Shown: positions 1,820 to 2,345 of the stretch, piece after piece
Layout: every line of letters starts with the position of its first letter
Numbering within the stretch: the first letter of the stretch is position 1
NCBI RefSeq assembly: GCF_988243305.1
Contig: NZ_OZ547136.1
Length of the DNA: 64,000 nucleotides
Direction: 5' to 3' (one strand)
The notes under the pieces: generated by a model
What the model saw: the letters and a program-made list of their open reading frames with translations, nothing else
What the model was told of the DNA's origin: nothing
Database searches by the model: none
Made by a program: the position numbers and the translations under genes

Positions 1820-1876
1820 AAAAAAAATTTTTTAGGGGGGTTGCAGAGGGAAAGATTTCTCGTATAATGCGCCTCC
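1820..1876 (+). promoter_or_regulatory. Sigma70 promoter for the tRNA-Gly array (-35 TTGCAG 1841-1846, -10 TATAAT 1863-1868, GC-rich discriminator, upstream A/T tract)
   Basis: Near-consensus hexamers with 16-bp spacer about 55 bp upstream of the first tRNA; GCGCCTCCC after the -10 is typical of stringently controlled stable-RNA promoters. Confidence 0.6.
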
Positions 1877-1925
1877 CGTAACGACGCAGAAATGCGAAAA
1901 TTACGAAAGCAAAATTAAGTAGTAC

Positions 1926-2001
1926 GCGGGAATAGCTCAGTTGGTAGAGCACGACCTTGCCAAGGTCGGGGTCGCGAGTTCGAGTCTCGTTTCCCGCTCC
2001 A
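1926..2001 (+). tRNA. glyV: tRNA-Gly (GCC anticodon), copy 1
   Basis: 76-nt sequence GCGGGAATAGCTCAGTTGGTAGAGCACGACCTTGCCAAGGTCGGGGTCGCGAGTTCGAGTCTCGTTTCCCGCTCCA; anticodon loop CTTGCCAAG; encoded CCA end. Confidence 0.95.
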
Positions 2002-2158
2002 AAATTTGAAAAGTGCTGCAAAGCACAGACCACCCAATCGCAGTATTTCGAATTGCGACAAGGCGGCAACTGAACGAATCCTTGGGAGCTTACAAAAGTA
2101 AGTGACTAAGGTGAGTGAAGGCAGCCAAGGCAGTAGCGGTTCGAAAAACGAAGATTAA

Positions 2159-2234
2159 GCGGGAATAGCTCAGTTGGTAGAGCACGACCTTGCCAAGGTC
2201 GGGGTCGCGAGTTCGAGTCTCGTTTCCCGCTCCA
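2159..2234 (+). tRNA. glyX: tRNA-Gly (GCC anticodon), copy 2
   Basis: Identical 76-nt tRNA sequence. Confidence 0.95.
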
Positions 2235-2269
2235 AAATTTGAAAGTGCTATAAAGCACAGACCACCCAA

Positions 2270-2345
2270 GCGGGAATAGCTCAGTTGGTAGAGCACGACC
2301 TTGCCAAGGTCGGGGTCGCGAGTTCGAGTCTCGTTTCCCGCTCCA
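2270..2345 (+). tRNA. glyY: tRNA-Gly (GCC anticodon), copy 3
   Basis: Identical 76-nt tRNA sequence, 35-bp spacer after copy 2. Confidence 0.95.

Follow-up and report, generated by a model that had tools for sequence, protein, structure and literature searches.

The segment at positions 1820–2345 of a 64,000-nt stretch of DNA (contig NZ_OZ547136.1 of RefSeq assembly GCF_988243305.1; the whole stretch is called the window below) is the Escherichia coli glyV-glyX-glyY operon, three identical tRNA-Gly(GCC) genes lying between orn and datA/queG, and its first spacer carries a 121-bp member of the ERIC/IRU repeat family. The account as a whole (three genes read from one promoter, processing of a common precursor, leaky termination, an ERIC-bearing allele and rare recombination between the repeats) is held with a probability of about 95%. 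The operon, its transcription, its processing by RNase E and the read-through into datA are already known from published work; this is a textbook operon, and its confirmation brings nothing new. The ERIC-bearing allele and its conservation across genera were the sole aspects for which no description was found, and novelty is not claimed for them: the literature search, which left out key ERIC surveys (Wilson and Sharp 2006, De Gregorio et al. 2005), returned no description of ERIC at glyV-X-Y.

The three genes were the only tRNA genes found by ARAGORN in the 64-kb window; all of them have the anticodon GCC and lie on the + strand, and each scored 69.1 bits over the full length of the Rfam tRNA model RF00005 (gathering score 29). 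A sequence-only reading of the window, made before any search, had described three identical 76-nt copies separated by 157 and 35 nt, and this description was confirmed by ARAGORN, Rfam and a script, the repeat finder being in agreement. Each unit has an encoded CCA end, and all tRNA columns were invariant in the alignment with glyV, glyX and glyY of K-12. The glyV-X-Y genes are the source of most cellular tRNA-Gly(GCC). Of 5426 complete E. coli genomes, 5425 gave a match to a query of 801 bases around the genes (100% identical in one case), so that the arrangement is neither chance nor a feature of the assembly; the RefSeq gene order in the matching E. coli loci is rsgA, orn, tRNA-Gly (×3), a 17-codon open reading frame and queG.

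The 157-nt spacer owes its length to the inserted ERIC element, which, like the adjoining datA, had gone unrecognised in the sequence-only reading. The spacers of K-12 W3110 and of strain N53 are 36 and 35 nt long, and alignment of the first spacer of the window with that of K-12 gave a clean insertion of 121 bp. The insert is an imperfect palindrome with a hairpin of 39 pairs; folding energy of the + strand RNA: −43.7 kcal/mol (z −5.7); of the complementary-strand RNA: −24.4 kcal/mol (z −1.6). In its core, 16 of 19 positions agree with primer ERIC1R (reverse complement) and, directly following, 18 of 20 with primer ERIC2, the two sites being adjacent and in the standard order; the primer sequences were verified in the literature (233 papers). 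With the insert as query in a distant BLAST mode, the median number of matching places in an E. coli genome was 8, and the insert was aligned almost end to end with the ERIC copies at puuR-puuC, queA-acpH, metE-metR and ybhJ-ybhI. ERIC/IRU elements are summarised in the review PMC3184786, after Sharples and Lloyd (1990) as well as Hulton et al. (1991), as imperfect palindromes of ~127 bp in Enterobacteriaceae; ERIC-type elements are there classed as miniature inverted-repeat transposable elements (MITEs) with TA target sites. The copy in the window is flanked by AA...AA; the orthologues in 'Escherichia sp.' ESNIH1, Pluralibacter and Klebsiella oxytoca have TAATC...GATTA, which is compatible with an original TA. 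Most of the features by which the family is recognised were found, and the insert is a member of the ERIC/IRU family; no Rfam family matched it in a search of window positions 1–6000 at E ≤ 1.

When folded in the context of glyV, spacer 1 and glyX, ERIC formed an independent module and the stretch AAAUUUGAAAA remained unpaired. Between a 15-nt segment of ERIC at 2067–2081 (CAACTGAACGAATCC) and the 5' portion of each tRNA-Gly gene (GGAATAGCTCAGTTG, at 1929–1943, 2162–2176 and 2273–2287) there is 80% complementarity; this lies outside the predicted fold and is probably due to chance.

With the insert alone as a megablast query, ERIC was found in 1606 of the 5426 complete E. coli genomes (1607 places), which fall into two allele classes, 583 genomes at ≥ 99% and 1023 at 95–99% identity; it was absent from 3820, K-12 included. 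Other species were surveyed by a pattern scan of one genome per species with a gap of 140–170 nt (at least 120 stretches, sorted by script; Salmonella did not appear among them), a pattern that also catches the distance from copy 1 to copy 3 of normal arrays and unrelated spacers of Pseudomonas, Stenotrophomonas and Dyella. At least six genera (Escherichia, Citrobacter, Klebsiella, Kluyvera, Pluralibacter and Silvania) have ERIC at this site, with its orientation unchanged. At least 11 ERIC-bearing loci outside the window represent the same locus, since all of them are flanked by orn and/or queG homologues. The element lies in spacer 1 of E. whittamii, the divergent E. coli SCPM-O-B-8794, Citrobacter sp. 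FP75, Citrobacter sp. Awk 4, Kluyvera genomosp. 3 and K. oxytoca; in spacer 2 of Silvania hatchlandensis and C. youngae CCUG 30791 (spacers of 37 and 155 nt); in both spacers of C. youngae ATCC 29220 (156 and 156 nt); in spacer 2 of ESNIH1, where spacer 1 holds an internally deleted remnant of 77 nt; and in spacer 1 of Pluralibacter sp., where a remnant stands in the leader before the first tRNA gene. Both remnants lack ~65 nt from the centre, with the left and right arms joined directly. The sister taxa Kluyvera genomosp. 1 and Silvania confinis had no ERIC among the matches listed. The occurrence of ERIC or its remnant before any of the three tRNA copies suggests conversion or unequal exchange within the array.

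Such patchiness might also have arisen by independent, site-specific insertions in each lineage, as opposed to one old insertion that was lost or copied by conversion. Presence does vary within species (E. coli, C. youngae) and within genera, the element occupies spacer 1, spacer 2 or both, and elements of the ERIC type are classed among the MITEs with TA target sites (PMC3184786). The copies in tRNA-Gly spacers are, however, 78–99% identical to one another (median 87.6%, among the matches listed) and only 61–78% identical to the ERIC copies at the four other E. coli loci; they share a CCTTGG/CTAAGG stem and the ends AATCGCAG...GAAGATTA, and all copies join the downstream tRNA in an identical manner, the orthologues listed always ending in ...GAAGATTA(A/T) directly in front of the following tRNA gene, with one orientation throughout. 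Independent insertion was rejected on this grouping of the spacer copies and is regarded as very improbable.

Comparison of the ERIC copies in tRNA-Gly spacers shows what appears to be one lineage under constraint, not evolving freely. Between E. coli and Citrobacter, Klebsiella, Kluyvera, Pluralibacter and Silvania the element is 82–94% identical, against 47–60% at the four-fold degenerate sites of orn in the same genus comparisons. Recent transfer of the whole spacer is an unlikely source of this identity, since over these distances the small hairpin that shares the spacer with it has diverged in sequence. In an alignment of 14 copies the consensus hairpin of 39 pairs was paired in 98% of cells; in 9 of the 39 pairs both partners had changed, the shuffled alignments giving 3.9 ± 1.1 such pairs and none of the 500 as many as 9, and the pairing was lost when the partners were slid by 1 to 3 columns. 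In most copies several of the pairs are G-U, a pairing valid only in RNA of the transcribed strand, which fits the strand asymmetry of the folding energies given above, and the orientation was the same in 14 of 14 copies.

All of these observations (cross-genus identity, divergence of the neighbouring hairpin, compensatory double changes, strand-specific G-U pairs, single orientation) speak against ERIC being a passive, selectively neutral remnant of a mobile element that is cut out with the spacer and degraded. In favour of a passive remnant stand its absence from 3820 of the complete E. coli genomes and from the two sister taxa, the internally deleted remnants in ESNIH1 and Pluralibacter and, to our knowledge, the lack of an established function for ERIC elements generally (review PMC3184786); this explanation is given an even chance. 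The other possibility considered is that ERIC is a selectively maintained RNA module, either as a stable and abundant spacer RNA or as a tuner of the processing of glyX/glyY by RNase E and RNase P and of read-through into datA, and that it persists as a long-lived presence/absence polymorphism across Enterobacteriaceae by conversion between paralogous spacers. This proposal is tentative and is considered unlikely.

Whichever applies, the fate of the element in the precursor may be outlined as follows. The ERIC insertion lies 2 nt upstream of glyX as transcription runs, and by itself it would form a long hairpin with imperfect pairing; it would be transcribed at the rates of a tRNA operon and removed along with the spacer. 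Cleavage by RNase E 3' of glyV and by RNase P 5' of glyX would release it as an RNA of ~150 nt. The nucleotides at −1 and −2 of glyX are AA, as in K-12, and 2 nt separate the hairpin base from the RNase P site beyond it.

The reading of the array as one operon with one promoter is supported by experiment in K-12, where the single promoter PglyV-X-Y drives glyV, glyX and glyY (Kasho et al. 2024, PMC10950094) and the RNA level is far higher over the tRNA genes than over orn (PMC10950094); in the window itself, a conserved promoter core and the lack of a second promoter-like site point the same way. The claim of the sequence-only reading that one promoter serves all three genes is thereby borne out, the identity of the locus in RefSeq being a further ground. 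The 135 nt upstream of the first tRNA gene were aligned for 20 sequences of Enterobacterales, which ranged from Escherichia to Proteus and Morganella. In this alignment the core (C/G)TTGC...TTCTCGTATAATGCGC..CCCGTA was invariant or nearly so, and the flanks varied, with an A/T-rich composition upstream; the retention of this core from Escherichia to Proteus, Providencia and Morganella is striking for a non-coding stretch. The A/T-rich tract upstream of the −35 hexamer, placed as an UP element would be, is a putative UP element. A consensus scan with a threshold of 4/6 called no promoter-like site in 1500–3000; the TTGCAG/TATAAT promoter was likewise uncalled, since its −35 hexamer has only 3 matches of 6. 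Promoter and terminator were located by eye, folding, conservation and literature, and not by the consensus scan. The promoter had been called near-consensus; this holds for the −10 hexamer (6/6) and fails for the −35 hexamer, and the promoter is called strong on the grounds of conservation and published expression data, not of its hexamer match. The G+C-rich discriminator, also named in advance, was found directly after the −10 hexamer. Transcription would start from a single sigma-70 promoter of the rRNA/tRNA type and give one precursor with all three tRNAs.

In the maturation of tRNA, RNase P makes the 5' ends and exonucleases trim the 3' ends to the encoded CCA. The major RNase E cut in K-12 lies 1 nt 3' of glyY in single-stranded RNA (Clarke et al. 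2014, 2023; PMC4191395, PMC9841416); it requires a single-stranded glyX-glyY spacer and the upstream glyX tRNA, and covering of the spacer blocks it (PMC4191395, PMC9841416). By these K-12 data, RNase E would cut the precursor within single-stranded, A/U-rich trailer sequence immediately 3' of each tRNA; by the established course of tRNA maturation, RNase P would then generate the 5' ends and exonucleases would trim to CCA.

Both spacers contain a hairpin with a 5-bp stem and a 4-nt loop (that of spacer 2: −6.2 kcal/mol, z −3.9), and most Enterobacteriaceae follow a common spacer plan: AAAUUUGA(A/U)..., hairpin, ...CACCACCCAA. At least 8 different complementary stems were found at the same spacer position across the family, among them GUGCU/AGCAC, GUAUC/GAUAC, GUGUC/GACAC, GGCC/GGCC, GGCUU/(C)AGCC, UGCC/GGCA, GGCGC/GCGCC and GUGCUU/AAGCAC; the structure appears to be under selection, since the stem sequences differ and yet remain complementary. 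The earlier suggestion that the spacer hairpin is a processing site has therefore to be divided: the structure is conserved with changing stems, but the mapped RNase E cut falls in single-stranded RNA. That the GUGCU...AGCAC hairpin is itself cleaved would agree with its constant position in most Enterobacteriaceae and with its always complementary stems; against this stand the position of the mapped cut 1 nt 3' of the tRNA, its blockage when the single-stranded spacer is covered, its need for the neighbouring tRNA, and the lack of a small hairpin in the aligned spacers of Kluyvera and K. oxytoca. Cleavage within the hairpin is doubtful, and a role as a structural boundary or guide is more likely; the hairpin could keep AAAUUUGAAA single-stranded, guide RNase E or stop 3' exonucleases.

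The DnaA boxes clustered directly after glyY belong to datA, a locus of replication control. A leaky attenuator that overlaps DnaA box 1 is how the hairpin following glyY is described (Kasho 2024, PMC10950094), and read-through from glyV-X-Y into datA in K-12 lowers the binding of IHF before replication initiation (PMC10950094), a known link between tRNA synthesis and replication control. In line with the K-12 data, the weak hairpin and U-run after glyY would let some transcription reach datA and so modulate IHF binding. The trailers of most Enterobacteriaceae keep a DnaA box (ATCCACA, often TTATCCACA) immediately 3' of the final tRNA gene.

Nothing speaks against the identity of the operon, but the account has some weak points. 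The −35 hexamer falls short of a good −35. The interrupted stem of the terminator (2371–2394: −9.4 kcal/mol, z −1.2) folds no better than shuffled sequence, and the terminator scan gave no call. As 70% of E. coli genomes lack ERIC, it can be dispensed with in some conditions at least. Transcription start, processing sites and read-through were all measured in K-12, which has no ERIC. About 30% of complete E. coli genomes carry this structured 121-nt element inside a heavily transcribed precursor upstream of datA, and all published work on processing and datA read-through was done on K-12. With its constrained ERIC copies in several genera, the locus lends itself well, as a natural experiment, to the question of what ERIC does.

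Variation in copy number had been anticipated from the identity of the repeats, and arrays of two and four copies were indeed found across E. coli strains, although rarely. A junction query (tRNA-spacer-tRNA) was found at 1 to 4 places per genome (median 2) in 5408 E. coli genomes; the total of 10732 places is 84 below two per genome. Two copies were found in AVS0750, BE311 and O111:H8 7-27 20A, the last of which keeps the ERIC spacer and whose sister O111:H8 8B has the normal three; four copies were found in 1297KP and ET979 with a synthetic four-copy query. Recombination between the identical repeats occurs, rarely, and would yield the two-copy and four-copy arrays; some of the two-copy assemblies may be collapsed repeats. 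Three copies predominate strongly, and nearly all Enterobacterales loci among the matches listed also have three.

The positions of all features are collected in Table 1.

Table 1. Features of the glyV-glyX-glyY locus and its neighbours (positions in the 64,000-nt window).
Feature	Position	Strand	Basis
orn (oligoribonuclease), coding sequence, upstream neighbour	1170–1715	+	RefSeq annotation of 100%-identical locus, moved by offset
A/T-rich tract upstream of −35 (ATAAAAACTCAAAAAAAATTTTTTAGG), UP-element-like placement	1810–1836	+	sequence; tract kept in 20 Enterobacterales sequences
−35 hexamer TTGCAG	1841–1846	+	3/6 matches to TTGACA; CTTGC/GTTGC invariant in 20 Enterobacterales sequences
−10 hexamer TATAAT	1863–1868	+	6/6 matches; 16-bp spacing from −35; invariant in 20 Enterobacterales sequences
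G+C-rich discriminator GCGCCTCCC	1869–1877	+	sequence; GCGC..CCC nearly invariant in alignment
5' leader of precursor, predicted to be removed by RNase P; start approximate	1878–1925	+	promoter geometry
glyV, tRNA-Gly(GCC), encoded CCA	1926–2001	+	ARAGORN, Rfam, script; same as K-12
Spacer 1, 157 nt (K-12-type 36-nt spacer + 121-bp insert)	2002–2158	+	alignment with K-12 W3110 and strain N53
Small hairpin GUGCU-GCAA-AGCAC, spacer 1	2013–2026	+	fold, −7.2 kcal/mol; stem covaries across genera
ERIC/IRU-family repeat, 121 bp, imperfect palindrome	2036–2156 (AA-ambiguous boundary; alternatively 2038–2158)	+	alignment; absent in K-12
glyX, tRNA-Gly(GCC)	2159–2234	+	ARAGORN, Rfam, script
Spacer 2, 35 nt	2235–2269	+	repeat finder, fold
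Small hairpin GUGCU-AUAA-AGCAC (DNA: GTGCT-ATAA-AGCAC), spacer 2	2245–2258	+	fold
glyY, tRNA-Gly(GCC)	2270–2345	+	ARAGORN, Rfam, script
Equivalent of mapped major RNase E cut, 1 nt 3' of glyY	2346–2347	+	homology transfer from PMC4191395; trailer as in K-12
Start of datA, DnaA-box cluster	2364–2613	.	pattern search; datA downstream of glyV-X-Y per PMC10950094
DnaA box, 1 mismatch, overlapping terminator stem	2364–2372		pattern search
Terminator/attenuator TglyV-X-Y, interrupted stem CAGCGACGC-GAU-GCGUU-AUU-GCUG, then GUUUUU	2371–2400	+	fold
DnaA box, perfect, TTATCCACA	2431–2439		pattern search
yjeV, 17-codon hypothetical protein WP_010723271.1, inside datA	2579–2632	+	RefSeq; overlaps 3' end of queG
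DnaA box, perfect, TTATTCACA	2593–2601		pattern search
DnaA box, 1 mismatch	2605–2613	−	pattern search
queG	2615–3754	−	RefSeq

The promoter of yjeV is only putative according to Kasho et al. (PMC10950094). A match to the Rfam model YrlA (Y RNA-like) at 2184–2322, found in the same search of positions 1–6000, covers half of glyX, spacer 2 and half of glyY; at 40.3 bits it lies below the gathering score of 69 and was taken as resemblance to a tRNA-like domain. Minus-strand open reading frames of 83, 93 and 119 amino acids that overlap the tRNA genes were treated as spurious. The one genome out of line with the 801-bp query was E. coli OHT76-1 (NZ_CP135244.1), in which the sole match was glyW of the glyW-cysT-leuZ operon and the query gave no match to the 3' end of orn, glyVXY or datA in the complete genome; a deletion, a rearrangement or a fault of the assembly may lie behind this. 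Records classed as plasmid were matched at 9 places by the whole region, at 4 by the tRNA-spacer junctions and at 1 by ERIC. Among the matches listed, Aeromonas has 5 to 7 tandem tRNA-Gly(GCC) genes with the same 5' and 3' ends and spacers of 24–38 nt, and Pseudomonas and Xanthomonadales (Stenotrophomonas, Dyella, Rhodanobacter) have 2–3 copies with spacers of 140–170 nt of unrelated sequence.

Of known systems, the closest is the glyV-glyX-glyY operon of K-12, which has the same tRNA sequences, promoter core, spacer 2 (its loop apart) and neighbour genes as the window, an identical trailer, and a terminator and first DnaA boxes that are identical or nearly so. The few point differences lie in the upstream A/T tract, the loop of spacer 2 and datA; the first spacer of K-12 is 36 nt long, whereas that of the window is the same 36 nt plus the 121-bp ERIC. 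With the ERIC/IRU family the insert shares its size (121 bp here), the long imperfect hairpin, the primer-site core and a transcribed intergenic position. It differs from the other four E. coli copies in being part of a tRNA operon, at 2 nt from a site of RNase P, and not between protein-coding genes, and in its ends (AATCGCAG...GAAGATT, as against TATAC...GTATA); it belongs to a distinct sub-lineage common to several genera. Promoters of rRNA and tRNA genes such as rrnB P1 are stringently controlled. The glyV promoter resembles the rrnB P1 type in its 16-bp spacer, TATAAT, a discriminator starting with GCGCC and the upstream A/T tract, and is set apart from it by the −35 hexamer TTGCAG; by this resemblance it may also be under stringent control. 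Non-tRNA parts of tRNA precursors that can persist and bind partners are represented by 3'ETS-leuZ (from glyW-cysT-leuZ) and the Hfq-bound metZWV precursor. A co-immunoprecipitation signal of Hfq has been reported over the 3' region of glyY (PMC10710024), and the likeness of the ERIC spacer to the 3'ETS-leuZ and metZWV spacer RNAs may be drawn as an analogy only.

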